From contig OW818668.1 of the NCBI GenBank assembly GCA_942493105.1, forward strand, positions 810,001-842,000: a stretch of 32,000 nt of DNA. The letters run 5' to 3'. Below, in pieces: positions 3,012 to 24,035 of this stretch. Within the stretch, counting starts at the first letter, position 1, and the number at the start of each line of letters is the position of its first letter. The notes below the pieces were generated by a model. It did no database searches, had not been told where the DNA came from, and saw only the letters and a list, made by a program, of their open reading frames with translations. The translations under genes were made by a program, and so were the position numbers. The DNA comes from an uncultured Erysipelotrichaceae bacterium. Lineage in GTDB: Bacteria > Bacillota_I > Bacilli_A > Erysipelotrichales > Erysipelotrichaceae.

Positions 3012-3040
3012 TTGACATGGGAAGTATCTGATAGTAATAT
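3012..3040 (+). promoter_or_regulatory. sigma-A type promoter of the TetR-MMPL operon
   Basis: TTGACA (3012-3017), 17-nt spacer, TAATAT (3035-3040). The ORF-track start at 3012 is the TTG inside this -35 box. Confidence 0.6.
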
Positions 3041-3041
3041 A

Positions 3042-3055
3042 AGTAAGTACTTACT
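3042..3055. promoter_or_regulatory. perfect 14-bp palindrome, candidate TetR operator
   Basis: AGTAAGTACTTACT is its own reverse complement. It lies immediately downstream of the -10 box and upstream of the RBS of the TetR gene. Confidence 0.5.
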
Positions 3056-3074
3056 AACATTAAGAAAGGAAGAT

Positions 3075-3632
3075 ATGAAGGCAGAAACAACAAAACGACT
3101 GAGTCGAGATGATCGACGTGAGCAAATCATCCAAGCAGCTTTATTGGTTTTTGTTGAGAAAGGATTTGCGGCGACTACTACTGCTGAGATTGCAAAAGCA
3201 GCTGATATTTCAGAAGTGACATTGTTTAGAAATTTTTCATCAAAACGAGAAATATTCTATACGGGGATTGAGCCCATCTTATTCAAAGCATTACAGGATG
3301 ATTCCCCACAGGTGAAAAAGCATCTTGAGCCTTACCAAATAGAAAAAATTATCTTTGATAGAATAAGATTTTTAGAAGATAATCGAGGTATCGTTAAGCT
3401 CATTCTCAATGAAAATATGTTGAATCAAGAGGAAGATAACACCATTCATAAGATGGTTATTAACTTAAAAAAGCTTCTTGATAAGAACAAAATCAGTGGC
3501 AATGATGAATTTACGATTCGAATACTGATGGGTTCATTTCTGTCCTTTCTGTATCTGCCAGAATCAAACGAAGACCTTGTTAAAGAATATGCTCAACGCA
3601 TTTCAAGATTGATCATTCAGAGTCATCAATAA
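3075..3632 (+). CDS. TetR/AcrR family transcriptional regulator
   Basis: Start re-picked: ATG 3075 with RBS AAAGGAAG (3065-3072). N-terminal HTH RREQIIQAALLVFVEKGFAATTTAEIAKAADISEVTLFRNFSSKREIF. Confidence 0.9.
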   Translation: MKAETTKRLSRDDRREQIIQAALLVFVEKGFAATTTAEIAKAADISEVTLFRNFSSKREIFYTGIEPILFKALQDDSPQVKKHLEPYQIEKIIFDRIRFLEDNRGIVKLILNENMLNQEEDNTIHKMVINLKKLLDKNKISGNDEFTIRILMGSFLSFLYLPESNEDLVKEYAQRISRLIIQSHQ

Positions 3633-3641
3633 AGGAGAGAT

Positions 3642-8560: not shown

Positions 8561-8860
8561 AGTTTTCTCCTTGTGGTGGCTTGGCGCTCATCAAAAAAGG
8601 GCTCACCCTCTGATGTCAGAGGACGAGCGCCGTTCGTGTTACCACCTCAATTTACCGATCTCTCACAAAATCGGCCTTTTTAGGTACAGTTAAATCGATA
8701 CCCTATCTCTATAACGGGAGATCCCGACTTCACTTACTATCTTCAGCGAGCTGCTCAACAGGCGTATTCCGTTTGATCCAAACCGCTTCTTTTCACCGAC
8801 CAGAAGCTCTCTACAGATTTATCACAACGTACTCTTCCCATCTCAATGCATTTTTTATTG
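8561..8860 (-). promoter_or_regulatory. T-box riboswitch leader with a tyrosine (UAC) specifier
   Basis: Read on the minus strand. Stem I starts with a GA/K-turn context (TTGAGATGGGAAGAGTA ... CCTGTTGAGCA) and an AGAGA distal motif. The specifier loop is GAA-TAC-G (TAC is the rc of 8764-8766). The T-box sequence AAATTGAGGTGGTAACACG (rc of 8635-8653) carries a UGGU bulge. A terminator follows, and its 5' arm can alternatively pair with the T-box GAGG. Confidence 0.85.
8593..8628 (-). terminator. intrinsic terminator of the T-box leader
   Basis: On the minus strand, GCTCGTCCTCTG (8628-8617), ACAT, CAGAGGGTGAGC (8612-8601) form a 12-bp stem including two G-U pairs. This is followed by CC and TTTTTT (8598-8593). 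Confidence 0.8.
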
Positions 8861-8865
8861 GTTCA

Positions 8866-8895
8866 ATGATACATGCTGGATAAGTAGCTTGTCAA
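8866..8895 (-). promoter_or_regulatory. sigma-A type promoter of the T-box/tpl transcript
   Basis: On the minus strand: TTGACA (8895-8890), 18-nt spacer, TATCAT (8871-8866). Confidence 0.6.
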
Positions 8896-9521
8896 GATAA
8901 AATATGATTAAATTATCCTTTACTAAAAACTAACTGATTCAGGTAATTCTTGAATTAAAAACATTTTTATAGAAATTCACCTTGTTTATGGATTTCTCTT
9001 GAATGTTTATGAAATCAGCATCATTCAGTTTCAGTAAATATATAATTACTCGTGGTTAGGTAAAACAAAGGTTTAGTAGTAGATGATTAACTCAAGTATT
9101 AGTTCCAAAAGAACAATTTAGATGGTGAGTAACACATAGTAAAAGCATTCATAACCACTTAGATTAACGATAACTAAACTTCTTAATTTCACCAAAAAGA
9201 AGTTAGTGGTGCTTTCAACATATTATGAATAATATGAAAATAGTTAGCAGGCAATTTGGTTTAAATAATCCTCACGGAGAATGGCGCAACTCATAAAAAA
9301 TAGTAACCAATGTTGTGTAAATATAAAGAAACTAAAAAAATTAATTCCTAAAGAGTAATCTTTTTAGATTTGCACAAAGTTTGCTATAAATAGCAGATAA
9401 CCCACCTTTATAGCGCTTATTTCTACCATTATTTATAAATTTAGTTTAAGATGTATTTAAATAAAACTTAGAAGTTGATTTAGTAATTAAATTGGATTTA
9501 CTAAAGGGGAAAGGTAGAAAT

Positions 9522-11660
9522 ATGAAAATTTTATACATAGGGGAATGCGATAGTTTTTCGGCACAGTTTATTGATCGCCACGTTAAAGAAGGTAATTCTG
9601 TAAGCATCATTTCGAGACAGGATTTCTCCAAGTTTAACAAACCAAAACTACAGTACAGCTGGTATGATTATTCGGCTGACAATGTTACTGTTGATCGTAT
9701 CTTCAGCAACATCAAACCTCAACAAGTTGTGTTCGCTGGAAGCTTATTTGGCGATGAAGAGTGGTCTTACGATGCAGACTCTAACCGGTATCTAAGTGAA
9801 CTCTTAAATATTCTAAACTTGTCTAAAAAATATGCTGTTGATAAGTTTATTTTCCTGTCTTCAACAGAGGTCTATAAAGCATATAAGGATGGACCGATCG
9901 GTGAAGAAGGTGATTATGGTCCTTCGACTTATAAAGGCATCCTGACCACTCAAGGCGAGATCCTAGTCAAAGAAGTTGGTGCTTTATCTACTCTGAATAC
10001 GCTTATTCTGCGCTTCAGTGATCTCTATGGATATAAACTTGAAGAGGAAAGAAATGACTTCTTGAGCAGTCTATACCATCAGCTGCAAAAACTGGACGAA
10101 CTTCATCTCAATAAAGACCATAACCTGAGTCCTTTACACATCAATGATGCGGTAGAAGCAGTATACCGCTGTGAAGGCAATACACCTTCTAAGATCTATA
10201 ATGTGGCTGGTAATCGCCAAGTCAATGCTTTGGCTGTGGCTGTTACACTCAAACAGAAGCTCAATAAGGCAAGCTCATTGGTCGCTGTGCAAGGCAATGC
10301 CCATAATAATGAGATCGACTCCAAATTGATCAAGACTGAACAGGAGTGGGGAGAGTTTTATTCCTTTGATGAATTCTTGGCTAACCTGACGATCACTTCA
10401 CCAGTTTCCAATGAAACTGTTCTCGAGAAACCTAAAAAAGAAAAATCAAATCCGGTCGTGCTCCATCTTATCGAGAATGTCGTGTTCTTTGTGTTGATGG
10501 CAACTTTGACAACGTTGTTTAAAGATCACAGTGTCCTAAAGAACGTTGATCTTATGACCATCTATATTGTATCTATTGCTTTATTCTTTGGGATACGGCA
10601 ATCCATCTTATCGATCATTTTAACCTTTGCTTTCTACCTGTATGGACTGCAATTTGATTTCGGTAACTTCATCAACATCGTACTTAATGCGGATACCTTC
10701 CTAAAATTGGCACAGTATATCTTTATGGGGGTCGTAGTTGGTTATACTGTGGATCAGTTTAAAACCAACCAGGCTCAATTGACTATTGAAAAAGAATATC
10801 TTGAGAACGAATACGAAGAGCTAAAAGAAATCAACGACGCCAATGTCATGATCAAACATCAATATGAAAAGCGTTTGATCAGTTACAAGACCAGTTTACC
10901 TCGTTTGTATGCGATCACCAATCAGCTGGATTCTTTGGATCCTGAGATCCTTTTCTCTTCGATCATCAAAGTTTTGGTGGATGTTTTGGAAACCGATTCC
11001 GTATCGGTCTACTCCTATGACAGCCGTAATGGTTATGCTCGTCTGATCGGTGCTAAAAATGAAGAGTCTGTATTCATGGGCAAATCCTTTAAGCTTTCCG
11101 ATCACAAGGAATTGGAACACAAACTATTTGATAATGACATCTTCATTGGCAATCAGTGGGCAGATGGATCACCAGCCATGGCTGGTCCAATCTTCTTCAA
11201 AGGCAACATCATTGCCATCATTCTGATCAAGTCCATGACTTTTGAATCATTAAACCTATACCAAGTTAACCTCTTGAGAACACTGACTTCTTTGATTTCC
11301 TCTTCCTTCATTCGTGCCTATCAGTATGAAGAGAAGGTCCACAACGAAAAGTATTTGACCAACACAGAAGTCCTGGTCACCTCAGAATTCAAACGATTGA
11401 TTGAGTTAAAGCGCAATGACAGTGATCAGGCTTTTGCAGACTACACATTATTGAGATTGATCCATACGGAAGATCCAACGACCTACTACTTTAAAATCAT
11501 GAATTATTTCAGATCGACCGATTATTTCGGAATCGACAGCCAAAACCGCATTCATGTCTTGTTGAGAAATACCGCAGCTCAAGATGTAGCGTTTGTGGCC
11601 GCTCGTTTGAAAGACAAAGAGATTCATTTTGAACTCGTAGATATGAATTCGTTGAAGTAA
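9522..11660 (+). CDS. pelD: PelD-like c-di-GMP receptor candidate with an N-terminal degenerate SDR/epimerase-like domain
   Basis: Start re-picked to ATG 9522 (MKILYIG) after AAAGGGGAAAGG. Residues 1 to about 290 are SDR-like (LSSTEVY, YKG..). The GxxGxxG is degraded to GECDSFS, and YxxxK to YKGIL. About four TM helices follow (VVLHLIENVVFFVLMATL ... YIFMGVVVGYTV), then a coiled coil and a GAF-like region. The C-terminus is a truncated GGDEF-like fold with RSTD (11511-11522) in the I-site position and no GGDEF motif. It is the first gene of a pelDEAFG-ordered operon. Confidence 0.7.
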   Translation: MKILYIGECDSFSAQFIDRHVKEGNSVSIISRQDFSKFNKPKLQYSWYDYSADNVTVDRIFSNIKPQQVVFAGSLFGDEEWSYDADSNRYLSELLNILNLSKKYAVDKFIFLSSTEVYKAYKDGPIGEEGDYGPSTYKGILTTQGEILVKEVGALSTLNTLILRFSDLYGYKLEEERNDFLSSLYHQLQKLDELHLNKDHNLSPLHINDAVEAVYRCEGNTPSKIYNVAGNRQVNALAVAVTLKQKLNKASSLVAVQGNAHNNEIDSKLIKTEQEWGEFYSFDEFLANLTITSPVSNETVLEKPKKEKSNPVVLHLIENVVFFVLMATLTTLFKDHSVLKNVDLMTIYIVSIALFFGIRQSILSIILTFAFYLYGLQFDFGNFINIVLNADTFLKLAQYIFMGVVVGYTVDQFKTNQAQLTIEKEYLENEYEELKEINDANVMIKHQYEKRLISYKTSLPRLYAITNQLDSLDPEILFSSIIKVLVDVLETDSVSVYSYDSRNGYARLIGAKNEESVFMGKSFKLSDHKELEHKLFDNDIFIGNQWADGSPAMAGPIFFKGNIIAIILIKSMTFESLNLYQVNLLRTLTSLISSSFIRAYQYEEKVHNEKYLTNTEVLVTSEFKRLIELKRNDSDQAFADYTLLRLIHTEDPTTYYFKIMNYFRSTDYFGIDSQNRIHVLLRNTAAQDVAFVAARLKDKEIHFELVDMNSLK

Positions 11661-11674
11661 AGGAGGACGAAACC

Positions 11675-12559
11675 ATGCCAGTATGGATTCTATTGATATT
11701 AAATACCCTGTGTTCAGTCCTGTTTTTCTTTACTGTGAAAGACAAACAAGAACGTATCTTCACTTTGTTCTTTCTGATCTTGCCGATATTTGGATTCATT
11801 TTCTATTTCATTCCGAAACTATCTTTCCAATTGACCAAGAAACACAACTTATATGATGCCTCCAATGTAAAACTTAAGATCAGTGAAGAAACTTTCTCGC
11901 AAAAACCAAATGTCCCTGAAGAAATGAACATCGTCTCATTCGATGAGATCATGCAGGTAGGACTCAAAGAAGAAAAAAGAGCCTTACTTTTAAACGTTTT
12001 GAAAGATGATTTGGTTGATAATGCATCGTTTATCCGTTCGGCGATGGGAGACTCTGATTCTGAAACTACCCACTATGCAGCTTCCGCAACCATGCAGATT
12101 TATACCAAACTCAGATCTGCAATTCAAGCCTTGGAAACACAACAGCAGCTTGATCCTGAGAATCCGAAAGTGATGCTCAATTTACTATCTGCAATCAGTG
12201 ATTACATTTTAAGTGGTGTCCTTACCAAAAGGGACAGTGATTTCTACTGTAACAAATACTTCAGAGCATTCAATACTCTAAAGAAATTTGAACCAGGTTT
12301 GCTGACTTGTGATGCGTATTTGAAACAAGCTGATTTTCTGTATTCAAATTTCGAGGTTCACAAAAGCATTGAAACAGCCATCGAAGCCAGAAACCATTTT
12401 GATGTAGAAGAAGCCCATCTCAAACTTTTGGAACTGTACTATAAGACGGGCAATCAACATCAATTCAATGAAGCGTTTGAAACTTTCAAACGTTCTAATC
12501 TGACTGTATCCAACAAGGGACTAGAACTGATTCGGTTTTGGAGCAAGAGGACTGCTTAA
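11675..12559 (+). CDS. pelE: PelE-like inner-membrane protein (two TM helices plus a helical-repeat domain)
   Basis: RBS AAGGAGGA. Two N-terminal TM helices (VWILLILNTLCSVLFFFTV; IFTLFFLILPIFGFIFYFIP), then about 220 aa of helical/TPL-unrelated TPR-like sequence. The assignment rests on architecture and its slot between pelD and pelA. Confidence 0.6.
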   Translation: MPVWILLILNTLCSVLFFFTVKDKQERIFTLFFLILPIFGFIFYFIPKLSFQLTKKHNLYDASNVKLKISEETFSQKPNVPEEMNIVSFDEIMQVGLKEEKRALLLNVLKDDLVDNASFIRSAMGDSDSETTHYAASATMQIYTKLRSAIQALETQQQLDPENPKVMLNLLSAISDYILSGVLTKRDSDFYCNKYFRAFNTLKKFEPGLLTCDAYLKQADFLYSNFEVHKSIETAIEARNHFDVEEAHLKLLELYYKTGNQHQFNEAFETFKRSNLTVSNKGLELIRFWSKRTA

Positions 12560-14277
12560 TGTTTTCTCGTAAACGCTTAGCTTACATCTTAACGATCACC
12601 ATTATTTTTGGCGGACTCTTTTTTTTATTCAACTTGGACTATGATTTTCTAAGATCACAGTCGATCAATGAAGCCGATAAGATTGTCCCTTCTCAAAAGG
12701 TAAGTGCGATACTTAATGGTGATGCTGATGATGGTTTCATCGTCATTGGAGAACCACTTAACGAAACTGAGGAGTTGATCAAAACCAACGTGATCAAAGC
12801 TTTGACGCAGATCAAAAGCGAGATCACAATCGTAACTCATCTCTCACAAGCGGATCTCAGTAAGCATTCGATCTTGATTTTTGTTGTTTCGGATGTTAGC
12901 CAAGCAGGCGGTCTTGAAGAAATTGCAGGTTATGTGACCAAAGGAGGCAAAGCCATATTTGCTGCTGGTATCCCTTTCGAAACAGATTGGCGTTATCTGG
13001 ATCCTTTGTGGGGTATCCTTGAACGTGGTACTTTCAGGACAGTCAAAGACATCACCTTTAACCAAGACTATTTCCCTTACGATAAAATCACAGTCAAAGA
13101 TGGGTATCCGACTTATTCTACAAGCTTAAGATTAAGCGAAACTTGTGAAGTATTGCTTCAAGGCGAAAATGACATCCCCTTAGTGTGGTCTCATTCGTTT
13201 GAATCTGGGAGGATCACCATGATCAATGGAACCTTTATGGAAAGTAAACTCTCCTTAGGGGTCTTGATTGCATCCATCAACAGTACCAAACAAACTTCAC
13301 TTTACCCGATCTTGGCAACGAAAACCATCTTTCTGGATGCGATTCCACCTTTATTTGACGGTAATGATGATCATTCATTTGAGTATTATGGAAGAAGCGC
13401 AGAATCTTTTGTAAGAGACAAGTTATGGGGAGTTCTGCTTCAAAAGGCCAGCATCTTGGATCTGAGATTGACATCGAGTTTTATGGCCATTGATAAGCAA
13501 CCTTTTGATAGCCAAAATGCCAATCAACAAACATTTTCCTACATCAATCGGGAAATCATCCGCAATAAAGGCGAGATCACTTTATCTGGTAATCATGTTG
13601 AATTGAATGATTTGAAGCAAACGCGTATTGAACAAACCGAATCCTTCTTCAGTGAATTCTTCCCAAATTACAATATTCATGCATATTATCCTTTGTACGG
13701 TAAGATCAATCAGCAGCAAATCAATTTAATAAAAACAGTTTATCCTGCCATCGACATTCTTCGCTTGCTTTATGATAGCGATCAGATTACCCAATCCAGC
13801 GGTGATTATCAGGTCACTGATGGACTTGTGATCTATCCAACCACGACTTACGGGTATAAAGCTGAAGGATTACAACTGTATACGTTTATTTCCGTACTGA
13901 CATCGCATGGAGCGGTTTCACACAGCTTTGATATCAACTCTTTGTTTACTGTACCATCGAGTGAAAGTAACTGGAATACTCTGAATAAAAGCTTCGACAC
14001 CTTAAGCGAGATTTATTTCCAAAAAACACCCTGGTTGGATTCATTGACGATTTCACCAGCGGCTGAAAAAGTGAAGGACTTAGATACTCTAAGCATCCAA
14101 ACCAAAACCGAAGCTAATCAAATCACTGTGGCTTGTACAGACATGGCTGTTGGACAGAAATTCATGTTTTATACCACCAAAACGATCCTCAGTGCCATCG
14201 GCGCTAAAGTAGAACGAATCAATTCTCGATATTATATCATTGAAGCATCATCCGCATCGTTTGTATTAATGTATTGA
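12559..14277 (+). CDS. pelA: PelA-like protein, deacetylase-only type (PelA_DA candidate), extracytoplasmic
   Basis: Start re-picked: TAATG stop/start overlap with pelE (12557-12561), with RBS AAGAGGA (12545-12551). Signal anchor LAYILTITIIFGGLFFLF, then about 540 aa outside. The call rests mainly on synteny with Gram-positive pelDEA(DA)FG. I could not verify a CE4-type metal triad by eye. Confidence 0.55.
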   Translation: MFSRKRLAYILTITIIFGGLFFLFNLDYDFLRSQSINEADKIVPSQKVSAILNGDADDGFIVIGEPLNETEELIKTNVIKALTQIKSEITIVTHLSQADLSKHSILIFVVSDVSQAGGLEEIAGYVTKGGKAIFAAGIPFETDWRYLDPLWGILERGTFRTVKDITFNQDYFPYDKITVKDGYPTYSTSLRLSETCEVLLQGENDIPLVWSHSFESGRITMINGTFMESKLSLGVLIASINSTKQTSLYPILATKTIFLDAIPPLFDGNDDHSFEYYGRSAESFVRDKLWGVLLQKASILDLRLTSSFMAIDKQPFDSQNANQQTFSYINREIIRNKGEITLSGNHVELNDLKQTRIEQTESFFSEFFPNYNIHAYYPLYGKINQQQINLIKTVYPAIDILRLLYDSDQITQSSGDYQVTDGLVIYPTTTYGYKAEGLQLYTFISVLTSHGAVSHSFDINSLFTVPSSESNWNTLNKSFDTLSEIYFQKTPWLDSLTISPAAEKVKDLDTLSIQTKTEANQITVACTDMAVGQKFMFYTTKTILSAIGAKVERINSRYYIIEASSASFVLMY

Positions 14278-14310
14278 GCTGAATAAACCAAAGGAAGAAG
14301 GGGGCTAATT

Positions 14311-15759
14311 ATGAAAGTATGTATCATCTCTGAAGGAAGTTATCCATATGTTGCTGGTGGTGTATCCAGCTGGGTACAAATGCTTCTGGACCATTTCAGT
14401 GACATCGAATTTGTAATCTGGTCGATCGCAACCAGTCGTGAAGAAATGAGCGAGATGAAATACACCTTGCCTGCAAACGTCAAGGAAGTTAGAACCATCT
14501 ATCTTAATGATGTCAAATTCAAGACGATCCATTCCAATATCAAATTATCAAAAGATGAGCACGAAGCCTTAAAATCATTGATTATGGAGAATGATCATGA
14601 AGACATCCAATGGAAACCAATCTTAGATCTCATCAAGAATCATAAAGGCAACCTGATCGATGTACTGATGAGTCATGATTTCTTTGATATCGCTGTTGAT
14701 CTGTATAACACGGATTTCTCTAGAACTGTATTCAATGATTTCCTGTGGAATCTAAGATCGATGTTTTATCCTTTACTGTCAACCTTGGTCGATGAATTTC
14801 CCCAAGCAGACATCTATCATTCAGCCTCTACTGGTTATGCTGGTCTTTTGGGCAGTATTGCCAGTTATATCAATAAGAAACCTTTGATCATCACTGAACA
14901 TGGAATCTATACCCGTGAACGTGAGGAAGAAATCATCAAATCCGATTGGGTCATTGGTGATTTCAAACGGAATTGGATCAACTTCTTCTATCGGATATCT
15001 TCAATCTGTTATCATCAAGCTACCAAAGTCGTTTCCTTATTTGAAACCAACCGTGCTTTACAGATTGAAATGGGTTGTCCTGATGATAAAACGATGATCA
15101 TTCCTAATGGGGTAGACGTCAAACACTATTCTTCCCATCTTTATGATATCGATCAAAAAGCAGATATGAAAGTCTTGAGAACCAATTCAAATAAGATACG
15201 GATTGGTGCTACTGTCCGTATGGTTCCCATCAAAGACATCAAGACCATGATCCTAGCTTTTGAAGCTGCATTACAGCGTGTTAGTAATCTTGAACTGGTA
15301 ATTTTAGGCCCTACTGAAGAAGATGTTGAATATCATCAAGAAGTTATGTCTCTGATCGATGATTTTAAACTAAAGAATGTATCGATCATGGGTCGTGTCA
15401 ACGTCAAGAACTACTTGCCTACGTTTGACATCATGTTGCTGACCAGCATCAGTGAAGGACAACCTTTGGCTGTACTGGAAGGCATGGCAGCAGGTATACC
15501 GCAGATTTGTACCAATGTCGGTGGTTGCAAGGAGTTGTTGTATGGAATGAGCGATGACGAACTTGGACACTGTGGAATCATTGTACCTGTCATGGATATC
15601 GAAAAGATTGCCTCAGCTATCGAAGTGTTGGCACTTGACGAAACCCTAAGAGCTCAAATGGGTAAGATTGGTCATGAACGTGTTAAGGCAACCTATCAGA
15701 AAAAAGACTTCCTGGATCATTATGAAGCCTTATATAAATCGACTTTAGGTCAGCAGTAA
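14311..15759 (+). CDS. pelF: PelF, GT4-family glycosyltransferase
   Basis: The N-terminus MKVCIISEGSYPYVAGGVSSWVQMLL matches the PelF signature (EG.YPYV.GGVSSWV). The C-terminal GT-B motif is SISEGQPLAVLEGMAAGIP. RBS GGAAGAAGGGGG. Confidence 0.9.
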   Translation: MKVCIISEGSYPYVAGGVSSWVQMLLDHFSDIEFVIWSIATSREEMSEMKYTLPANVKEVRTIYLNDVKFKTIHSNIKLSKDEHEALKSLIMENDHEDIQWKPILDLIKNHKGNLIDVLMSHDFFDIAVDLYNTDFSRTVFNDFLWNLRSMFYPLLSTLVDEFPQADIYHSASTGYAGLLGSIASYINKKPLIITEHGIYTREREEEIIKSDWVIGDFKRNWINFFYRISSICYHQATKVVSLFETNRALQIEMGCPDDKTMIIPNGVDVKHYSSHLYDIDQKADMKVLRTNSNKIRIGATVRMVPIKDIKTMILAFEAALQRVSNLELVILGPTEEDVEYHQEVMSLIDDFKLKNVSIMGRVNVKNYLPTFDIMLLTSISEGQPLAVLEGMAAGIPQICTNVGGCKELLYGMSDDELGHCGIIVPVMDIEKIASAIEVLALDETLRAQMGKIGHERVKATYQKKDFLDHYEALYKSTLGQQ

Positions 15760-15772
15760 AAGGAGAAACTCT

Positions 15773-17161
15773 ATGGCAGGCATCGGATTTGAACTTAGAA
15801 AAATATTTCGCGGCACTTCGATCAGCAGTAGATTAAAGGGGATTGCCTTTGCGACCATGACAACGATAGGACCTACAATCATCTTCCTAACCATGCTGAT
15901 CAGCATTAATTTAATGTTGACTGCATTGAATGTCAGTGAAGCAGATCAAGTCTTCTTCTCTAGTGCTACCTTGTATCTCTTTCTGTTCAGTATCATCATA
16001 ACTGGAACGACCGGAACGACGATCACCAGATATATCTCTGATAGGATCCATGAGAATGAAGAAGACTATATCCCTTCAGCAATGTTTGGAACATCGATCC
16101 TAATCAGCGGACTGACAGCACTCTTCGCAACGATCATCGTAGTCTTGTTGTATAAGGATGGCATTACCGATTTGGTTTTGCTTGCTTCATTGTATGTTTT
16201 GTCTATCGTGGTCAGTATCACCTATAACTTGATGTTTTTTATCTCAGCCTTGAAAGAATATTTAAAGATCACAGCCGCTTTCTTCTTTGGTTTTTTATCC
16301 GGCGCTCTGACTTTCTATTTGCTCTATCAGTTTACTCAGATCAATATATTGATTTCAATCTTGATGGGTATGATTGTCCTGTTTTCAATCATCAATCTGC
16401 TACTGATTTATCTGATCCTGACATACTTTAATCATTCCAATCGAGATTATTTTAGATTCCTAACTTATTTCAAAAAACACCCTTATCTTTTTCTCAGTGG
16501 TTTTTTCTATATCACAAGCTTATATATCCCAAATATCCTATATTGGATGTATTCAGATATCGCGATCCAGGTTTCAATTTTCAGGGTGGCTCCATCGTAT
16601 GATATGGCACTCTTCTTAGCGATTCTGGTCAATTTATCAACTCCGGTCATATTTGTTGTCAAAGTCGAAACTAAATTCTTTGAAAAGTATCAGAAATATG
16701 TTGGAAGTTTGATCAACGGGACCTATGGTATCATAGAGAAGTATCGTAAGATCATGTTAAAAACCATGGATATCGAACTCTTCTATATTTATGAAGTTCA
16801 ACTGATCATCACCATAATTCTGACCTGTGCCGGCATTTTGCTTCTTCCAATGTTGGGTTTTGGTGGGATGATCCTGAACTATTTCCTCTTGTTGTCGATT
16901 GGCGTATACTGTACATATCTAATGTATTTCACAGTAGTATTCCTGTATTATTTTGATGATCAGTTTGGTAGTTTTATCACGACGCTGACCTTCTTCGTCA
17001 CCACTGTATTTGCCAGTATTGCTGCACTTCAGTTGGGTGTCTCTTATTATCCTGTAGCCCTATTTATTGGTGGGATTGTTTCCTGGGTTGTCGGCTTCTT
17101 TAGACTGAGGACCTTCATGGGAACCATCAACGCAAGACTGTATTGTAAAAGTGCAGAGTAA
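15773..17161 (+). CDS. pelG: PelG, polytopic exopolysaccharide export/polymerisation membrane protein
   Basis: The N-terminus MAGIGFELRKIF is the characteristic PelG start. About 12 TM helices. RBS AAAGGAGAA. Starts 13 nt after the pelF stop. Confidence 0.9.
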   Translation: MAGIGFELRKIFRGTSISSRLKGIAFATMTTIGPTIIFLTMLISINLMLTALNVSEADQVFFSSATLYLFLFSIIITGTTGTTITRYISDRIHENEEDYIPSAMFGTSILISGLTALFATIIVVLLYKDGITDLVLLASLYVLSIVVSITYNLMFFISALKEYLKITAAFFFGFLSGALTFYLLYQFTQINILISILMGMIVLFSIINLLLIYLILTYFNHSNRDYFRFLTYFKKHPYLFLSGFFYITSLYIPNILYWMYSDIAIQVSIFRVAPSYDMALFLAILVNLSTPVIFVVKVETKFFEKYQKYVGSLINGTYGIIEKYRKIMLKTMDIELFYIYEVQLIITIILTCAGILLLPMLGFGGMILNYFLLLSIGVYCTYLMYFTVVFLYYFDDQFGSFITTLTFFVTTVFASIAALQLGVSYYPVALFIGGIVSWVVGFFRLRTFMGTINARLYCKSAE

Positions 17162-17170
17162 AGGAAACTC

Positions 17171-18907
17171 ATGAAGCGTTTTAATTGGAAGAATAGAAAT
17201 TTTCTAGTTGTACTGTCATTTATCCTAGGGATCGGTGTTTTTACTAGTTTTTATTTGAGTTCACTCAATAAAGTTGAAGAACTGCCAGAAGACAATACCA
17301 GCTTGGAAGATTGGACTTTAGAGAACAGCCCACTTAACGGACTGCCTTTGATTGAAAACAAGACAATCTATAAAGTCGATCAGGCTGATGATTTGGATTC
17401 GATTTACATTACTGTTTTTCCAACAGAGACGGATGAAGGACTCATCGATTTTTCAATTTTCGACTTGCATGAATCTTTGAATCAAGACTTCAATCCGACC
17501 TTGAATGCCAACGTTACGATCGGTGATAGCAGTGGTAAGCTATCTGTCTTCGTGGACACCAACTCAATCAATGCCTACATCAAAGTCAGAGGCAATTCCT
17601 CAAGAGGTGCGGCTTTTAAATCCTACAAGATCAAGTTCACTACTGAAAATGACAGCTATAAAGGATTCACTGTTCTAAATCTCAATAAGCACGTGTATGA
17701 TCCCAGCAAAGTTGCAAACAAATTTTCCTTTGATATGATGAGTCAGTTAGATAATATGGCTTCACTGAGAACAAACTTTGTCAAAGTCTACATCAAAGAT
17801 GCCTCTTTACCGACCAATAAGCGTAAATATGTTTATTATGGACTTTACACCAACATAGAACAACCCAATCGGGATTTCTTAACGTCACACGGCTTAGATG
17901 CCAATGGCTCACTATATAAGGCGACCAGTTTTGAATTTCACGAGTATGAAGCTTTGAAGAATGTGGATGATCCTGGCTATAATCAAGCTGCTTTCGAAAA
18001 GATCCTTGAGATCCGCGAAGGCAATAATCATACAAAACTATTGAAGATGCTAAAAGACATCAATGATATGGAGTTGGATTTTGACACGACCTTCAAGAAG
18101 TATTTCAATGAGGAGAATTATCTGACATGGCTGGCAATGAACATCCTGCTGGGCAATGAAGATGTCTTGTCTCAAAATTTCTTCTTATATAATCCTACCA
18201 ATTCATTGACTTGGTATCTGTTACCATGGGATTATGACGGAACCTTTAAATTCGGGATTGCGGAATCTGGACATAAAGCACCGGATTCGATGCAAGGTAT
18301 TCAGCGTCTTACCGCCATACTTTTGCATCGTCGTTACTTTTTAAAGGCGGAGAATATCGATAAACTGACAAAAAAACTGGATGATTTACTCGCTACGACT
18401 TTCTCAAAAACCAACGTCAATAAAACGGTAGACCAATATCTTCCAGTCATGCAGGCAACCTTAGGGAAGCTTCCTGATGTTAGACTTCTAGGAATGGAAC
18501 CCAATCAGCTTAAGACATATATCCATGGCTTCTATGACGAAATCAAATCTAACTACGATGATTACTTAAGTGCATTGAAATACCCGACTCCTGTCTTTAC
18601 AGCGACGCCTATCAAAAACACAGACGGAACAACAACATTTATCTGGGAAAATTCTACCGATTTCGATGGGGATCTTATCAAATACTCGATTCGATTGGCA
18701 AAAGATCCTGGGATGAAACAAATCATCTTCAGTCAACAAAACTTGGTCGTTACGAATTACACCTATACCGGGACTTTAAAAGGAACCTATTACTTGGAAG
18801 TCAAAAGCATCGACAGTAAAGGAAATAACCAATATAGTTTAGACACCTTTGAGAATCTGATCACCCAGATTCATTACTTTGGGATCAGACAACTTATCTT
18901 TGAGTAG
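17171..18907 (+). CDS. CotH-family atypical kinase-like protein, membrane-anchored and extracytoplasmic
   Basis: Starts 9 nt after the pelG stop. N-terminal signal anchor (NFLVVLSFILGIGVFTSFYL). CotH-type core (LNLNKHVYDPSKV..F.., NFFLYNP, LLPWDYDGTF, with W-D-Y-D at 18227-18238). The C-terminal region of about 100 aa is a beta-rich FN3-like domain. Confidence 0.8.
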   Translation: MKRFNWKNRNFLVVLSFILGIGVFTSFYLSSLNKVEELPEDNTSLEDWTLENSPLNGLPLIENKTIYKVDQADDLDSIYITVFPTETDEGLIDFSIFDLHESLNQDFNPTLNANVTIGDSSGKLSVFVDTNSINAYIKVRGNSSRGAAFKSYKIKFTTENDSYKGFTVLNLNKHVYDPSKVANKFSFDMMSQLDNMASLRTNFVKVYIKDASLPTNKRKYVYYGLYTNIEQPNRDFLTSHGLDANGSLYKATSFEFHEYEALKNVDDPGYNQAAFEKILEIREGNNHTKLLKMLKDINDMELDFDTTFKKYFNEENYLTWLAMNILLGNEDVLSQNFFLYNPTNSLTWYLLPWDYDGTFKFGIAESGHKAPDSMQGIQRLTAILLHRRYFLKAENIDKLTKKLDDLLATTFSKTNVNKTVDQYLPVMQATLGKLPDVRLLGMEPNQLKTYIHGFYDEIKSNYDDYLSALKYPTPVFTATPIKNTDGTTTFIWENSTDFDGDLIKYSIRLAKDPGMKQIIFSQQNLVVTNYTYTGTLKGTYYLEVKSIDSKGNNQYSLDTFENLITQIHYFGIRQLIFE

Positions 18908-18911
18908 CACC

Positions 18912-19625
18912 ATGAAAATTAGAAACCAAACTTTACGGCATGAATTTAAGTTCTACATTGACCAGAAGACATATCAAATCCTTAGACAAAGGTTCTTAAT
19001 TGTTGCTAGACCAGATGAGAATTCCAAAAGCGAAGACGGATACTTGATCTCAAGTCTGTACTTTGATGATTACCGAAACAGTTCCCTTAAAGATAAAATC
19101 GATGGAGACCGCTTCAGAAGGAAATTTCGAATCAGAGTCTATGAACACGATCCTGGTCTTATCAAACTGGAATCCAAGGCTAAATTGGACAGCTGGACAG
19201 CCAAGGAAAGCACTCTGTTGACTTTAGAAGAGTATCAGAAAATACTGGCTGAGGATGTGGATTTCCTGATCCTAAAGGATGATCCGCTATGTAAAGAATT
19301 GTATTCACTGATGAAGACAAAGCTCCTAAAGCCTAAAGTCATCGTTGAATATGAACGGGAAGCCTATGTCGTGAACGAAGGCAATGTCAGACTTACCTTT
19401 GATAAACAGCTTCGATCCAGCATCAACGGCCTCGATATCTTTGATCCAACTGTGGTCTATAGTGCCGCTTTACCACAGGACCTATTGGTGTTTGAGGTCA
19501 AGTTTGATGACTTCATCCCCAAACACATTAGATCGCTCATCAATGGGCAAAGCATGCAACGATACGCCATATCTAAATATGTCATCTGTAAAAAGAGAAG
19601 AGAAAGGGTAATCCAATATGACTAA
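18912..19625 (+). CDS. VTC-domain (polyphosphate-polymerase-like, triphosphate-tunnel) protein
   Basis: Start re-picked to ATG 18912, 4 nt after the cotH stop. It is soluble, 237 aa. The N-terminal beta-strand RHEFKFYI is an R-x-E-x-K tunnel signature. Alternating charged strands run throughout (RRKFRIRVYE, IKLESKAK, VIVEYEREAY, VRLTFDKQL, LVFEVKFD). Confidence 0.7.
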   Translation: MKIRNQTLRHEFKFYIDQKTYQILRQRFLIVARPDENSKSEDGYLISSLYFDDYRNSSLKDKIDGDRFRRKFRIRVYEHDPGLIKLESKAKLDSWTAKESTLLTLEEYQKILAEDVDFLILKDDPLCKELYSLMKTKLLKPKVIVEYEREAYVVNEGNVRLTFDKQLRSSINGLDIFDPTVVYSAALPQDLLVFEVKFDDFIPKHIRSLINGQSMQRYAISKYVICKKRRERVIQYD

Positions 19626-20289
19626 TTTCGTAGACATCCTGAAGAAGAGCTTTCTAGAGAACGGCCAAATGGCTGATTTGAGCATTGCTAGTATTTTAAT
19701 GTCTCTGATTTCTGCATTTTTGTGTTCTATGATTATCTATTATGTATACCGGAAGTATTATCGTGGGATCGTCTACAGCAGCAGTTTCAATATCCTGCTG
19801 GTACTCGTCAGTATCGTAACAGCATTTATCGTCATGACCATCAGTTCGAACATCCTGCTTTCATTGGGGATGGTTGGTGCCCTTTCAATAGTACGTTTTA
19901 GAACTGCAGTTAAAGACCCATTGGATGTCGGCTTCCTATTTTTCGCAATTTCAGTGGGGATCACTTCTGGAGCAGGACTCTATATTTTGAGTTTCATCGC
20001 GACAATTTTCATATCGCTGATTTATATCCTTCTGGTTCAAGTCAAAACCTTTACGAAGGTATACCTGTTGATCGTGAAGTTTGAAAACAGTGCCAATGAA
20101 GAAGTCCAAAAGATCCTAAAAACTTTAAAAGGTGAACTTAAAAATAAGACGACTATAAAAGATACGATTGAATTGACGCTTGAGCTTCGCTTGAAAGGTG
20201 ATAATACAGCTTTTGTGAATCAATTGTCTTCATTGCCTGGTGTCAAGAGTGCCGTCTTGGTGGAATACACCGGAGACTTTGGTGAATAA
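19618..20289 (+). CDS. DUF4956-like polytopic membrane protein
   Basis: An ATGACTAA overlap (8 nt) with the VTC gene. About 4-5 TM segments and the family-typical motif LSLGMVGALSIVRFRTAVKDPLDVGFLFFAISVGITSGAG. The C-terminal region of about 85 aa is a soluble alpha/beta segment. Confidence 0.75.
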   Translation: MTNFVDILKKSFLENGQMADLSIASILMSLISAFLCSMIIYYVYRKYYRGIVYSSSFNILLVLVSIVTAFIVMTISSNILLSLGMVGALSIVRFRTAVKDPLDVGFLFFAISVGITSGAGLYILSFIATIFISLIYILLVQVKTFTKVYLLIVKFENSANEEVQKILKTLKGELKNKTTIKDTIELTLELRLKGDNTAFVNQLSSLPGVKSAVLVEYTGDFGE

Positions 20290-21661
20290 ACGTAAAAGTC
20301 TAATCATTATATTTATTATTCTGGCGACAGCCCTGGGGATCACCGGGACTGTCGTTTTTTTTCGTGTCCCTTATACGACTTTGACGTATACAGAAAGTGA
20401 TGAAATCATCACCAATCCTTCAAGAGGTTTCTATGTCCAATTTGATTCAGGACATCTTCAAAAGCTATATGAGCTAGATGGCTCAGGCATCACATTGGTT
20501 CTGTTGGCATACGATATCCAAGATTTTACAGATCGTGATCTGTCTCAAGCTAAACTTGATGAATTATCTTTGGCGTTTGATGCCATCAGAGCGCATGGTT
20601 TAAAAGTCATATTCAGAGCAGCTTACGGATTTAGCAGAAATGCTGAATACTCAGATCCAAGCTCTTTAAACATCATCAAGACCCATATTTCTCAAATCAG
20701 TCCGATCCTCATTGAAAACAAAGACTTGCTTCTTACGGTCCAAGCTGGCTTCTTAGGTCCTTGGGGTGAGTGGCATCATAGTAATCTCGGGGATGATCAA
20801 GGTACTCCAACACAAGCAATCATCAATGAACTGCTTGCGGCTTTGTGTGAAGCCGTACCTCAAACTGTTTCGATAGCAGTTCGCAGACCCAGATTTATTC
20901 GACTGATCGATACTTCCATAGTCGATATCAGCCGCATCGCATTTCATAATGATGCGCTATTGTCGACAGATACTGATATGGGTAGTTATGATCAGGCTGA
21001 ATACACTCGCAACGATGAACTCACTTACATTCATGAACGTCCATATCCAGTAGCCAACGGGGGAGAAATGCCGATGTTAAGTATGTATACTGAACCCTCT
21101 GTTGCCTTTGAGGAACTTTCATTACTGAAATTGACTTATCTCAATCATGAATACAATAAGGAAGTTATTGCCTATTGGGAAACGGTTAATACTGAAAATA
21201 AACCCTTCATTGATCTTATTCAAAAGAAACTGGGATACCGTTATTTCATTGAAAAATCAATCATCCCAAAATCATTCAGAACAGATCAATCCGTAAAAAT
21301 TAAAGTGACTTTGAAGAACTCCGGTTTTTCTGCTGTTACGATCCCGTATCGGATTGAATTGATTGTCCATGATGAATCGGGTGTTCGAAAAATTATCCCG
21401 TTTGAGGGAATCAATCTTCAGACATTGAACTCTGAACAGACCTTAACTATGACGGTTTTAATGAATTTAAGTGAACTGTCTCACAAATTTACTTTGGGAT
21501 TGCGAATCGTTGAGCGTGATATGACTCAAATAATGGATGAACGAACATTGATTCGCTTGGCCAATGAAGGATTGACCATGAAGGATGGGATCACTTTTTT
21601 TGCATCCTATGACTGGGATGGAAAAAAATACACATTAAGTAGTTCTGTAAGAGAACAATAA
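20282..21661 (+). CDS. DUF4874/DUF4832-like protein, putative extracytoplasmic TIM-barrel glycoside hydrolase
   Basis: The start is uncertain: GTG 20282 (8-nt overlap with the upstream stop, GGAG 20272-20275) or GTG 20240. Signal anchor LIIIFIILATALGITGTVVFF. Motifs NPSRGFY, GFLGPWGEWHHS, VRRPRF, FHNDALL and NGGEM. C-terminal beta-sandwich-like domain. Confidence 0.6.
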   Translation: MNKRKSLIIIFIILATALGITGTVVFFRVPYTTLTYTESDEIITNPSRGFYVQFDSGHLQKLYELDGSGITLVLLAYDIQDFTDRDLSQAKLDELSLAFDAIRAHGLKVIFRAAYGFSRNAEYSDPSSLNIIKTHISQISPILIENKDLLLTVQAGFLGPWGEWHHSNLGDDQGTPTQAIINELLAALCEAVPQTVSIAVRRPRFIRLIDTSIVDISRIAFHNDALLSTDTDMGSYDQAEYTRNDELTYIHERPYPVANGGEMPMLSMYTEPSVAFEELSLLKLTYLNHEYNKEVIAYWETVNTENKPFIDLIQKKLGYRYFIEKSIIPKSFRTDQSVKIKVTLKNSGFSAVTIPYRIELIVHDESGVRKIIPFEGINLQTLNSEQTLTMTVLMNLSELSHKFTLGLRIVERDMTQIMDERTLIRLANEGLTMKDGITFFASYDWDGKKYTLSSSVREQ

Positions 21662-22412
21662 TTCTTTTAAGATATTTATCATTAGTGCTGGACACTTTAA
21701 CAGGAACTAATAATAATAAGAATGTAATTAAATCAATAAAATGAAACAAACCATATACATTCTTTAGCGTTTGAAAACTTCAAATTACAATTCATATCTT
21801 TTTAAGAATCCAGGAGTAAAGGGTGGGTTATAACATGCCTGTTTTAAACTTACGATGATTTCTTAGCCTTCTTGTTGAACCAAGATTATCTTAAGAACTT
21901 GATGAATTAAAAGTGGTACATCATCATGAGTGATTTTTAATGGCATAACAAAAGCTAATGTATGTATTCTGCTTTTATTGAGTTGATTACAACTTTTTCT
22001 GTCATGGAAATCCTCTGTCCACGATCATTGTTGCTTTGAATAAAGTCAAAAACCAATCAAAAACCTTGATAACTCTGTAGATCGCAATCTATTGCTTCAA
22101 TTATGTCAAAAGACTTATAATGTTGAATTTCAAAATGAACTTTCTTAAATTCATATTTATGTTGTTCAAACATAACGACTCTACAACATCAATATGTAAC
22201 TTTGCATCTTTCATGCTATGCAATAATAACCGGATCAATTAAATCGTTGTCAATCAAATATCTAAAAGGTTTATCTACATCAAATAAACGAATATTGTAA
22301 TAATGTTTGATTATGTGAGTATGTGTGAACTTACGCAATTCGGTTTAATAAAATACTAAGTGCTACAATGAAATCAGATATACTTAAATTCGTTTTGAAG
22401 ATTATCATATTT

Positions 22413-22441
22413 TTGGTTCATTAGTAGAGTTGTGGTATGAA
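22413..22441 (+). promoter_or_regulatory. candidate promoter of the HD-GYP gene (extended -10)
   Basis: TTGGTT (22413-22418), 17-nt spacer ending in TGG, TATGAA (22436-22441). Confidence 0.3.
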
Positions 22442-22520
22442 TCTTTAGCTGTTGACTCACAAATTTAAAACTTCTTGGATCAAGGTCTAAATCATGTATG
22501 TGAGTAAAGGAGAACATGAT

Positions 22521-24035
22521 ATGGCTAGGAAACCCATTAATAACCCTACAAGTACAACACTTTCTACAGACAGAGATCTTTTGTGTGAATTAAGCACAGC
22601 AAATAGAGAAATCGCAGATCAACTCATCGAGAACAAGAAAAATGAAAATGATCTTAAGACAATAGAGAAGAAACTTGTTCATCAAACCAAAGAAAGAAAT
22701 AAATTGATCGCTGAATTGGTAGATGCCAATAAAGAGTTGGGTATCCAGGAAAAAGATAAAAAGAGTATAAACAAAGAATTGGGTGTCATAAAAAAAGAAC
22801 TTGCACATCAAAATACCGAAAATACTGATCAAGCTAAAGAACTAAATACTGCTAATAAAGAGATCGTATTTCAAAAAGGCGAGAAAAAGAAGCGAACAAG
22901 AGAATTGAAAGTGATCAATGAAGCATTGAGTTTTCAAACAAAAGAAAATGAAGATCAAGCTGATAAATTCATCATCATAAAGAAGGCCATCATAAGTCAA
23001 GGTGTGCAAATTGAAAACTTGACGTATCAAAACCAGATGAATGGCTTAAATAATCGCAAGTACTTCCTAGATGCTTTAAAACGATATGATCTTGAATCCA
23101 ATTTACCAATCAGTATCATTATGTGTGAAATCAATGGATTGGCCATTATCAGTAATTCTTTAGGACATTTTATGGCAGACGAAATTCTATCCAGTGTTAT
23201 CAATGTTTTAGGTCATGTCGTGCGAAGAGATGATGTGAGCATATGTTTCAGTAGTGGTGAGTTTGCCCTGATCTTACCAAAAACAAGCATAAATAAAGCC
23301 AAAGAAATAGTAAAAAAGCTTAGAGCTTTCGCTTCAAAAGAAAGATCTGGATCATTTGAGGTCTCAATTTCTTGTGGGACACAGACAAAAATAGATAAAA
23401 GCGAAAGTCTCGATGATATTGTAAAAGCTGCAACAGAGCTGCTAAATATCGATAAAAACATCGAAGGATTACCTGCTGAAAACAATACCATTGGCTTGAT
23501 CATGGAGATGTTATTTGAGAAAAATAATCGTGAGATGTTGCACTCATCTAGAGTCAGTGATATATGTGAAAGAATCGCAAAAAAATTGAACTTCGATCAA
23601 GGAGTTATCAACCGTATCAAAATAACGGCTATGTTACATGATATTGGAAAGATTGGAATAGACGAAGGAATCTTGAATAAATCAGAAAAGCTTGATCCTC
23701 AAGAATGGACAGAAATCAGAAAACATCCTGAAATCGGTTATCGCATATTAAGTGCATCTAACGAATTTGTTGTCCATGCAAATGATGTGCTTCAACATCA
23801 CGAAAGAATCGATGGCAAAGGATATCCTTTAGGAGTTAAAGGTGAAGAAATTTCTCTTGTAGCAAAAATCATATCCATTGCGGATGCCTACGATGCTTTG
23901 ATTTCAGAAAGACCGTATCGAAAAGTCATGAGTGAAAAAGAAGCCATCGACGAAATCATAAAATGCGCTGGTGATCAATTTGATTCAGAACTGGTAAGTG
24001 TGTTTGTGGATATGATGAAAGAAAATACTGAATGA
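22521..24035 (+). CDS. coiled-coil / degenerate GGDEF / HD-GYP domain protein (c-di-GMP phosphodiesterase candidate)
   Basis: Start re-picked to ATG 22521 after AAAGGAGAA. The N-terminal region of about 150 aa is made of 21-residue repeats. The GGDEF fold carries SSGEF (23250-23264) in place of GG(D/E)EF but keeps RRDD (23223-23234) at the RxxD I-site spacing. The HD-GYP motifs are intact: HDIGK (HD at 23637-23642) and HHERIDGKGYP (GYP at 23820-23828). Confidence 0.85.
   Translation: MARKPINNPTSTTLSTDRDLLCELSTANREIADQLIENKKNENDLKTIEKKLVHQTKERNKLIAELVDANKELGIQEKDKKSINKELGVIKKELAHQNTENTDQAKELNTANKEIVFQKGEKKKRTRELKVINEALSFQTKENEDQADKFIIIKKAIISQGVQIENLTYQNQMNGLNNRKYFLDALKRYDLESNLPISIIMCEINGLAIISNSLGHFMADEILSSVINVLGHVVRRDDVSICFSSGEFALILPKTSINKAKEIVKKLRAFASKERSGSFEVSISCGTQTKIDKSESLDDIVKAATELLNIDKNIEGLPAENNTIGLIMEMLFEKNNREMLHSSRVSDICERIAKKLNFDQGVINRIKITAMLHDIGKIGIDEGILNKSEKLDPQEWTEIRKHPEIGYRILSASNEFVVHANDVLQHHERIDGKGYPLGVKGEEISLVAKIISIADAYDALISERPYRKVMSEKEAIDEIIKCAGDQFDSELVSVFVDMMKENTE

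Follow-up and report, generated by a model that had tools for sequence, protein, structure and literature searches.

We analysed a 32,000-nucleotide (nt) stretch of contig OW818668.1 from an uncultured Erysipelotrichaceae bacterium (hereafter the window), in which an operon for the exopolysaccharide Pel ends in four genes encoding a CotH-family kinase-fold protein, a VTC-domain protein, a DUF4956 membrane protein and a DUF4874/DUF4832 glycoside-hydrolase-like protein. With this ending, the locus adds one more case to a published arrangement, the accessory end of the Gram-positive pelDEA(DA)FG operon (Whitfield et al., 2020, PLoS Pathog; PMC7112168). The first three of the four genes, the CotH-VTC-DUF4956 trio, are an independent cassette that occurs with and without pel genes and is not pel-specific. 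Taken as a whole, the accessory end is best explained, with a confidence that we put slightly above even, as a Pel hydrolase joined to an autonomous trans-membrane phosphoryl cassette.

The window operon ends in the published Pel accessory genes

In species of streptococci and clostridia, Whitfield et al. described an accessory group of genes for CotH, a poly-phosphate polymerase, DUF4956 and DUF4832 that directly adjoins pelDEA(DA)FG; bifidobacteria have a variant of it (PMC7112168). The group goes together with PelD proteins that bear an added epimerase domain, occurs in streptococci without cyclic di-GMP (c-di-GMP) signalling, and was proposed to have a regulatory role (PMC7112168). In the window these four families directly follow pelG, arranged as published and encoded on one strand with it, and PelD carries an N-terminal epimerase domain, as in the published Gram-positive accessory form. 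The window differs in that the nearest relatives are Erysipelotrichaceae, not streptococci or clostridia, and in that a GGDEF + HD-GYP gene follows the module. The original prediction, made from the sequence of the window, held that known pel loci contain none of these families, which the earlier publication contradicts. It also held that the proteins of the trio have no experimentally defined role, a statement overtaken by a study of Streptococcus intermedius (mBio 2025; PMC12345266).

In that study, all four genes (SIR_1591–SIR_1594) were deleted in frame, and none of them was needed for Pel production (PMC12345266). SIR_1591, a DUF4832 protein with a TIM barrel and an N-terminal transmembrane (TM) helix, proved to be an active glycoside hydrolase; in purified form it dissolved Pel-dependent aggregates as well as the Pseudomonas PelA hydrolase did (PMC12345266). 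Deletion of CotH led to less Pel and deletion of DUF4956 to more, and in sputum medium each of these two mutants lost more than 50% of its aggregation (PMC12345266). The authors had already raised a possible link to phosphate metabolism (PMC12345266). The topologies predicted for the window proteins match those reported for S. intermedius, where CotH is secreted or anchored, the membrane protein combines an ACT domain with an MgtC-like TM region, and the hydrolase, a TIM barrel held by a TM anchor, bears a DUF4832 beta-sandwich. No streptococcal-named proteins were found among the best 120 matches of the homologue searches with the window proteins. Because the association of the four families with Gram-positive Pel operons has been published, the window locus itself adds little; what is still of value is how the trio works biochemically and the census finding that it occurs outside pel loci.

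Nine consecutive forward-strand genes, from about 9522 to 21661, make up the pel operon and its four-gene end, as judged by the open reading frames (ORFs) of the window and Pfam. The pelG stop (17161) and the CotH ATG (17171) are separated by a 9-nt gap, and the ATG is served by an AGGA-type Shine-Dalgarno site. The CotH stop at 18907 is followed after a 4-nt spacer by the VTC ATG at 18912. The DUF4956 ATG (19618) lies within the end of the VTC gene (18912–19625), giving an 8-nt overlap, and another 8-nt overlap results from a hydrolase start at GTG 20282 and the DUF4956 stop at 20289. This GTG has a GGAGA site 7 nt upstream and also fits an identical 459-aa database protein (P0241; 100% identity and coverage).

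A consensus scan for terminators within 9522–21661 found none that was convincing, only matches with short stems and poor T tracts; the 12 matches on both strands compare with 8.3 ± 2.9 in shuffled sequences. Like the terminator scan, the promoter scan of the window was uninformative, with counts at or below the shuffle expectation. The tight junctions and a terminator scan at background are indirect evidence that the four accessory genes are co-transcribed with the pel genes. On these matters the original prediction was borne out: the four genes directly follow pelG on the same strand, with the coordinates, spacers and overlaps that it gave, and it too had seen no terminator hairpin in this interval. 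Its five domain calls (CotH, VTC, DUF4956, DUF4874 and DUF4832) were upheld by a Pfam hidden Markov model (HMM) check, all of them well above the gathering score. Hydropathy analysis likewise agreed with the topology that it proposed, namely a single N-terminal anchor on CotH and on the hydrolase, a VTC protein without a TM segment and a polytopic DUF4956.

The trio occurs with and without pel genes

A genome scan yielded at least 591 VTC relatives, of which the best 80 species representatives were kept. Their 10-kb flanks were searched with the window proteins, and the neighbouring ORFs were clustered. The nearest relatives of the window VTC were in Erysipelotrichaceae metagenome-assembled genomes (MAGs), at 83, 80, 76 and 74% identity. 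The genes pelD-E-A(DA)-F-G-CotH-VTC-DUF4956 stood on one strand and in identical order in 46 of the 80 loci, and one further pel-linked locus (L057) was cut within pelG. The pel-linked taxa comprised Erysipelotrichaceae, Lachnospiraceae, Oscillospiraceae, Clostridium and Mobilitalea, as well as Brevibacillus, Cytobacillus, Neobacillus, Lysinibacillus, Psychrobacillus, Jeotgalibacillus and some Paenibacillus. The spacing between PelG and CotH had a median of 9 nt (37 loci). This arrangement is far beyond chance.

The trio itself was nearly constant. DUF4956 lay directly 3' of VTC in all 80 loci, and CotH was adjacent in 78; the exceptions were L063, in which no CotH gene was found, and L028, truncated on the upstream side by a contig end. 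No pel genes were present within 8–10 kb of about 28 of the 80 trios, mostly from Paenibacillaceae. In 23 of these pel-free loci the order was VTC-DUF4956-CotH; most belonged to Paenibacillus and Cohnella, with Neobacillus and Defluviitalea in addition. Four or five Clostridiales and Anaerolineaceae MAG loci kept the order CotH-VTC-DUF4956, with 5–8 kb of pel-free sequence upstream. A comparable group has been described in NELoc-2 of Clostridium perfringens, where a VTC protein, a 226-aa membrane protein and CotH are encoded together near a chitin-synthase-like glycosyltransferase (PMC2879425). Trios without pel genes thus contradict the published statement that the three-gene synteny does not occur outside pel loci (PMC12345266). 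The link between trio and Pel drawn in the original prediction is not peculiar to this genome, and the trio is not confined to pel loci.

A neighbour-joining tree of VTC and DUF4956, built without support values, placed the lineage with the VTC-DUF4956-CotH order (mostly Paenibacillaceae) in one clade. The remaining pel-free loci were nested inside pel-linked clades, indicating that the pel linkage was gained or lost more than once. The layout of the trio was the same in both contexts, with a VTC protein lacking a membrane segment, DUF4956 after it and an anchored or signal-bearing CotH.

Beside 15 pel-free trios, a divergent gene directly upstream encoded a purple-acid-phosphatase-like protein (Pur_ac_phosph_N + Metallophos) with an N-terminal membrane anchor. 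It lay on the minus strand at about 8450–9850 of the respective loci (L004, L039, L050, L052–L055, L059, L062, L065, L066, L072, L078, L080 and L084). About seven of these loci also had an OmpR-class response regulator and a HAMP histidine kinase alongside. We did not use this two-component system as evidence of phosphate regulation; PhoB and PhoR were the best NCBIfam matches, at scores far below the cut-offs and similar to those of many OmpR-class systems. The census sharpens the question of what the trio does: the cassette is independent, the VTC-DUF4956 pair is invariable, CotH is predicted to lie outside, and the pel-free versions often adjoin an anchored phosphatase-like enzyme.

CotH is predicted to be an extracytoplasmic kinase-fold protein

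The first gene of the module (17171–18907, plus strand) encodes a membrane-anchored kinase-fold protein of the CotH family, whose C-terminal region spans about 150 aa. It matched Pfam CotH (PF08757) at 2.7e-52 (178.7 bits; gathering score 23.8) and aligned to Bacillus cereus CotH (5jd9) at 1.9e-11, keeping the NEDvlsqN and PWDYD motifs. D331 (in NEDVLSQN) and D354 (in PWDYD) are the counterparts of D228 and D251 of B. subtilis CotH, the catalytic and metal-binding residues whose mutation inactivates the kinase (PMC7821199). The window protein therefore shares with the Bacillus spore-coat CotH proteins (5jd9/5jda) the Pfam family, the catalytic-loop Asp and the metal-binding Asp. Unlike the spore-coat proteins, which reside in the mother-cell cytoplasm, it is membrane-anchored, predicted to lie outside, and has the extra C-terminal region. 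CotH homologues are also found in hosts that do not sporulate, such as streptococci (PMC7112168).

Hydropathy analysis gave a single TM segment (residues 9–32) in the window CotH, preceded by K2, R3, K7 and R9. The CotH of every pel-free trio had either an N-terminal TM segment or a lipobox or lipoprotein-type signal peptide. Since an N-terminal anchor or signal was always present, CotH is predicted to be extracytoplasmic in all cases checked, the window and the pel-free trios. A cytoplasmic CotH was considered and rejected; the N-terminal charge distribution and the lipobox signals of relatives argue otherwise.

Some pel-trio loci contained a second CotH gene, located between CotH and VTC in L032, L058 and L074 and also seen in L038, L041, L043, L073, L075 and L077. 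The second CotH of L058 (517 aa) has CHB_HEX_C_1 (chitobiase/hexosaminidase C-terminal) and Fn3_assoc domains ahead of the CotH domain, and its counterparts in L032 and L074 belong to the same ORF cluster. These extra domains, in three loci, hint at a glycan context.

The VTC protein keeps the tunnel residues of Vtc4

The second gene (18912–19625, plus strand) encodes a soluble 237-aa VTC-domain protein, a triphosphate tunnel metalloenzyme of the Vtc4 polyphosphate-polymerase type. It matched Pfam VTC (PF09359) at 1.1e-37 (130.3 bits; gathering score 23). Single-sequence searches of the PDB with this protein, and with the hydrolase, found nothing; only a profile built from 15 VTC relatives reached the catalytic domain of yeast Vtc4 (3g3q), at 3.9e-6. 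E426 served to set the offset between the chain and native numbering of 3g3q at 185; K13, R73/R75, K89 and E195 of the window protein then correspond to K200, R264/R266, K281 and E426 of Vtc4. All five window residues were invariant among the 15 aligned relatives. S221-K222 may correspond to S457-K458 of Vtc4, in a stretch that HMMER left unaligned.

The window protein thus has the Pfam family and the tunnel residues in common with the yeast VTC complex. Unlike eukaryotic Vtc4, which has an SPX domain and a fused TM domain, it is a single domain with neither of these and with no hydrophobic segment, and its presumed membrane partner is DUF4956 and not a Vtc1-type protein as in yeast. It is no subunit of a VTC complex, though it may work like Vtc4. 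Because its gene is translationally coupled to that of a membrane protein, synthesis at the membrane is suggested.

DUF4956 is a polytopic protein with a distant likeness to MgtC

The third gene (19618–20289, plus strand) encodes a DUF4956 membrane protein with five predicted TM helices and a C-terminal ACT-like domain (Pfam PF16316, 3.6e-12, 46.8 bits; gathering score 30.6). It is the most conserved protein of the operon: its identity to the nearest locus was 89%, compared with 83% for VTC, 82% for CotH and 65% for the hydrolase, and in distant loci it was still 55–66%.

An AlphaFold model from 24 sequences (predicted local distance difference test score, pLDDT, 72) comprised five helices in the membrane and, at the C-terminus, a domain of beta-alpha-beta-beta-alpha-beta topology. 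The latter was matched by Foldseek, at marginal E-values, to ACT domains, NikR metal-binding domains and the MgtC C-domains 2lqj and 7qa5. Matches to the MgtC/SapB HMMs were colinear and below the cut-offs, with 16 bits against a Pfam PF02308 threshold of 31.4 (0.015) and 17.7 bits against an NCBIfam PRK09977 threshold of 214 (0.002). Relatives are labelled YhiD-like by the Joint Genome Institute. DUF4956 as modelled appears to have the general plan of the MgtC/SapB/YhiD family, about five TM helices and a C-terminal ACT-like domain, and is set apart from it by its own Pfam family and by matches under both curated cut-offs. The modelled fold agrees with that described for SIR_1592, which has an MgtC-like TM region and an ACT domain. 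By the positive-inside rule, we infer that the invariant motif GALSIVRFRTAVKDPLD would lie at the cytoplasmic face.

The last gene very probably encodes a Pel hydrolase

The fourth gene (20282–21661, plus strand) encodes a membrane-anchored glycoside-hydrolase-like protein with DUF4874 (131.3 bits, threshold 30.1; 3e-38) and DUF4832 (122.1 bits, threshold 29.2; 4e-35). Hydropathy analysis placed a TM segment at residues 4–30 after basic residues, and the AlphaFold2 model (pLDDT 93) had a helix at 3–27, a (beta/alpha)8 barrel and a C-terminal beta-sandwich. The best Foldseek matches in the PDB were barrels of GH5, GH14, GH26, GH39 and GH53, at TM-scores of only 0.3–0.48, so no close structure has been solved. 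E163 (GPWGEWH) and E262 (NGGEMP, at the end of strand 7) were invariant in 31 sequences, and we infer that they are candidate catalytic residues.

By analogy with SIR_1591, this protein is very probably a Pel hydrolase, and it likely substitutes for the hydrolase domain that is absent from PelA(DA). It would share with the hydrolase domain of PelA (GH166) and with Ega3-type GH114 enzymes the proposed role in the operon, that of an extracytoplasmic (beta/alpha)8 enzyme degrading Pel or a polymer rich in N-acetylgalactosamine (GalNAc); it differs from both in sequence family. The slot behind DUF4956 was variable in the census. A DUF4874/DUF4832 gene was present in 19 of the 47 loci, the window counted, and stood on the opposite strand in three Brevibacillus loci. 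Five Cytobacillus-type loci without it (L045, L047, L056, L064 and L068) had a GH114-like gene (275 aa; Pfam Glyco_hydro_114, 9.5e-13) just downstream of DUF4956 on the opposite strand. GH114 is the family of the GalNAc-polymer hydrolase Ega3, and the gene seems to stand in for the Pel hydrolase as a non-orthologous replacement. This pattern would fit a position in the locus that various Pel hydrolases can occupy, given that PelA(DA) of the window lacks a hydrolase domain.

Five DUF4874/DUF4832 homologues (P0319, P0330, P0332, P0333 and P0337) were longer, at 720–750 aa, and carried a fused metallo-beta-lactamase-fold domain (PF00753/PF12706).

Possible functions of the cassette

In the explanation that we favour, the anchored TIM barrel would trim or disperse Pel outside the membrane, doing the job of the PelA hydrolase domain. 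VTC, at the membrane, would make polyphosphate (polyP) or relay a phosphoryl group from a nucleoside triphosphate, and DUF4956 would serve as its membrane partner or conduit. The extracytoplasmic CotH would use the supply derived from VTC to phosphorylate a target outside the cytoplasm, which might be a glycan or a protein of the matrix or cell wall. Where it is joined to pel genes, the cassette would tune cell-retained Pel and the strength of aggregation, and would be dispensable for Pel synthesis. It is plausible from the protein families and their predicted topology that the trio works across the membrane and has a role in phosphoryl transfer. Delivery of phosphoryl groups, possibly as polyP, to a surface target would be the simplest reading of a VTC gene coupled to that of an MgtC-like protein, a constant extracytoplasmic CotH and a common anchored phosphatase-like neighbour. 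Phosphorylation of surface or matrix components by CotH had been offered as an alternative idea in the original prediction, and it is compatible with everything seen here.

Several points weigh against this explanation. The CotH kinases described so far work with ATP in the mother cell, and MgtC-family proteins are known as regulators, not channels. We found no precedent for polyP as a donor to the CotH fold, and no activity is reported in the literature for bacterial VTC-domain, DUF4956 or extracytoplasmic CotH proteins; what the searches on DUF4956 and on VTC domains of bacteria yielded was limited to transcriptome tables and studies of eukaryotes. The DUF4956 model is of moderate confidence, and the likeness of this protein to MgtC falls below the family cut-offs. 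The orthology of the window genes to SIR_1591–SIR_1594 is assigned by domain architecture and gene order. Deletion of VTC in S. intermedius, unlike deletion of its neighbours, gave no aggregation or Pel phenotype (PMC12345266). A silent VTC deletion beside effective deletions of its neighbours makes an obligatory chain from VTC through DUF4956 to CotH awkward.

The explanation can be extended to a self-contained extracytoplasmic phosphorylation system, with polyP synthesis of the Vtc4 kind, passage through the MgtC-like protein and a surface CotH that uses polyP; Pel would be one client of such a system and the phosphatase-like ecto-enzymes its erasers. We consider this extension unlikely. Decidedly more doubtful is the main hypothesis of the original prediction, in which VTC and DUF4956 export polyP as the anionic partner that cross-links the cationic, partly de-N-acetylated Pel, in place of the extracellular DNA of Pseudomonas. 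A cytoplasmic VTC with conserved Vtc4-type tunnel residues and a polytopic DUF4956 would suit such export, the operon has a PelA gene of the deacetylase type, and the trio is pel-linked in more than half of the species (46 of 80). This hypothesis is weakened because the VTC deletion mutant of S. intermedius aggregates and makes Pel like the wild type (PMC12345266) and because so many trios (about 28 of 80), including the monophyletic Paenibacillaceae clade, reside in pel-free loci. It also leaves the constant extracytoplasmic CotH without a role.

The regulatory module of Whitfield et al. requires no export: CotH would phosphorylate the Pel machinery or a regulator, DUF4956 would act as an MgtC-like regulator, and VTC would affect phosphate or nucleotide status. 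The CotH and DUF4956 deletions did shift the Pel level in opposite directions, and the MgtC proteins characterised so far exert their effect through binding to other proteins of the membrane (PMC12345266 and work cited there). The module also tracks the epimerase form of PelD and is present in streptococci that lack c-di-GMP signalling (PMC7112168). Set against this, the predicted place of the CotH domain is outside the membrane, whereas the regulation of PelD and PelF is cytoplasmic, and the trio exists without any pel genes. In the window, moreover, a GGDEF + HD-GYP gene is kept beside the operon, so c-di-GMP control need not be replaced here. On balance we regard this proposal as improbable. 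The trio might instead have an unrelated job, for example extracytoplasmic storage or scavenging of phosphate together with phosphatases, and be merely co-located with pel. The phosphatase-like gene beside 15 pel-free trios would agree with such a job, as would the fact that Pel in S. intermedius requires none of the four genes (PMC12345266). The two-component system next to some pel-free trios is closest to PhoB and PhoR among the NCBIfam models, though at scores far below the curated cut-offs. Mere co-location does not sit well with an order and a tight spacing kept in 46 species across Erysipelotrichaceae, Lachnospiraceae, Oscillospiraceae, Clostridium and several genera of Bacilli, nor with the two deletions that alter Pel-dependent aggregation (PMC12345266); we give it a small chance.

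If phosphoryl groups are indeed moved across the membrane by the cassette, as the favoured explanation has it, bacteria would have a new way to phosphorylate targets outside the cell, and the cassette would offer a handle on biofilm cohesion in streptococci and in gut Bacillota.

Upstream pel genes and other features of the window

The five pel genes ahead of the module all lie on the plus strand. The pelD-like gene (9522–11660) encodes an N-terminal NAD-epimerase domain (Pfam Epimerase, residues 33–239, 7.2e-12), TM segments at about 321–381, a GAF-like region (GAF_3, a weak match) and a degenerate GGDEF-like C-terminus. Translation likely starts at ATG 9522, which has a strong Shine-Dalgarno site; the ORF opens at TTG 9492. 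The C-terminus contains RSTDYFGIDSQNR, which by eye resembles an RxxD I-site followed by a degenerate GGDEF, like those of c-di-GMP-binding PelD proteins. The pelE-like gene (11675–12559) encodes a 294-aa membrane protein with two N-terminal TM helices and a helical-repeat C-terminus. No Pfam family was matched above threshold by this protein, which was assigned by position and conservation (ORF cluster 6, 41 loci). The product of pelA(DA) (12538–14277) is of the PelA deacetylase type (Pfam DUF2194, 2.8e-48), with an N-terminal TM segment and no hydrolase domain. PelF (14311–15759) is a GT4 glycosyltransferase with Pfam DUF3492 and Glycos_transf_1 and exceeded the cut-off of the NCBIfam PelF equivalog (370.7 bits; cut-off 100). 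PelG (15773–17161) is a polytopic membrane protein (Pfam PelG, 1.4e-99, 334.5 bits).

The GGDEF + HD-GYP (HD_5) gene, identified by Pfam and NCBIfam, is located at 22494–24035 on the plus strand, 833 nt downstream of the module. A homologue is found downstream of the pel-trio module in L058, L074 and L075 (Jeotgalibacillus and Trichococcus loci). This recurrence suggests a possible c-di-GMP input to PelD, and we treat the gene as context of the module. The N-terminal 170 aa or so of the window protein are rich in Lys, Glu and Asn and apparently repetitive. The 833-nt gap between the hydrolase gene and this gene (21662–22493) is AT-rich, GC being about 0.31–0.34 across 21001–23000; it gave no Rfam match and no convincing terminator after the hydrolase gene. 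Several short, broken minus-strand ORFs at 21955–22338 may be a decayed gene.

Farther upstream, the window encodes an ECF (extracytoplasmic function) sigma factor with a DUF4179 anti-sigma-like protein (1053–2799) and a TetR regulator with a 952-aa MMPL/RND-type transporter (3012–6500), neither pair having an evident tie to the pel operon. A full-length T-box leader lies on the minus strand at 8616–8855 (Rfam RF00230, 118.7 bits; gathering score 93), with a hairpin at 8628–8601 as its terminator. The minus-strand gene behind it (7112–8560) belongs to the Beta_elim_lyase family, of the tryptophanase or tyrosine phenol-lyase type. A T-box ahead of an amino-acid-degrading lyase is an unusual pairing.

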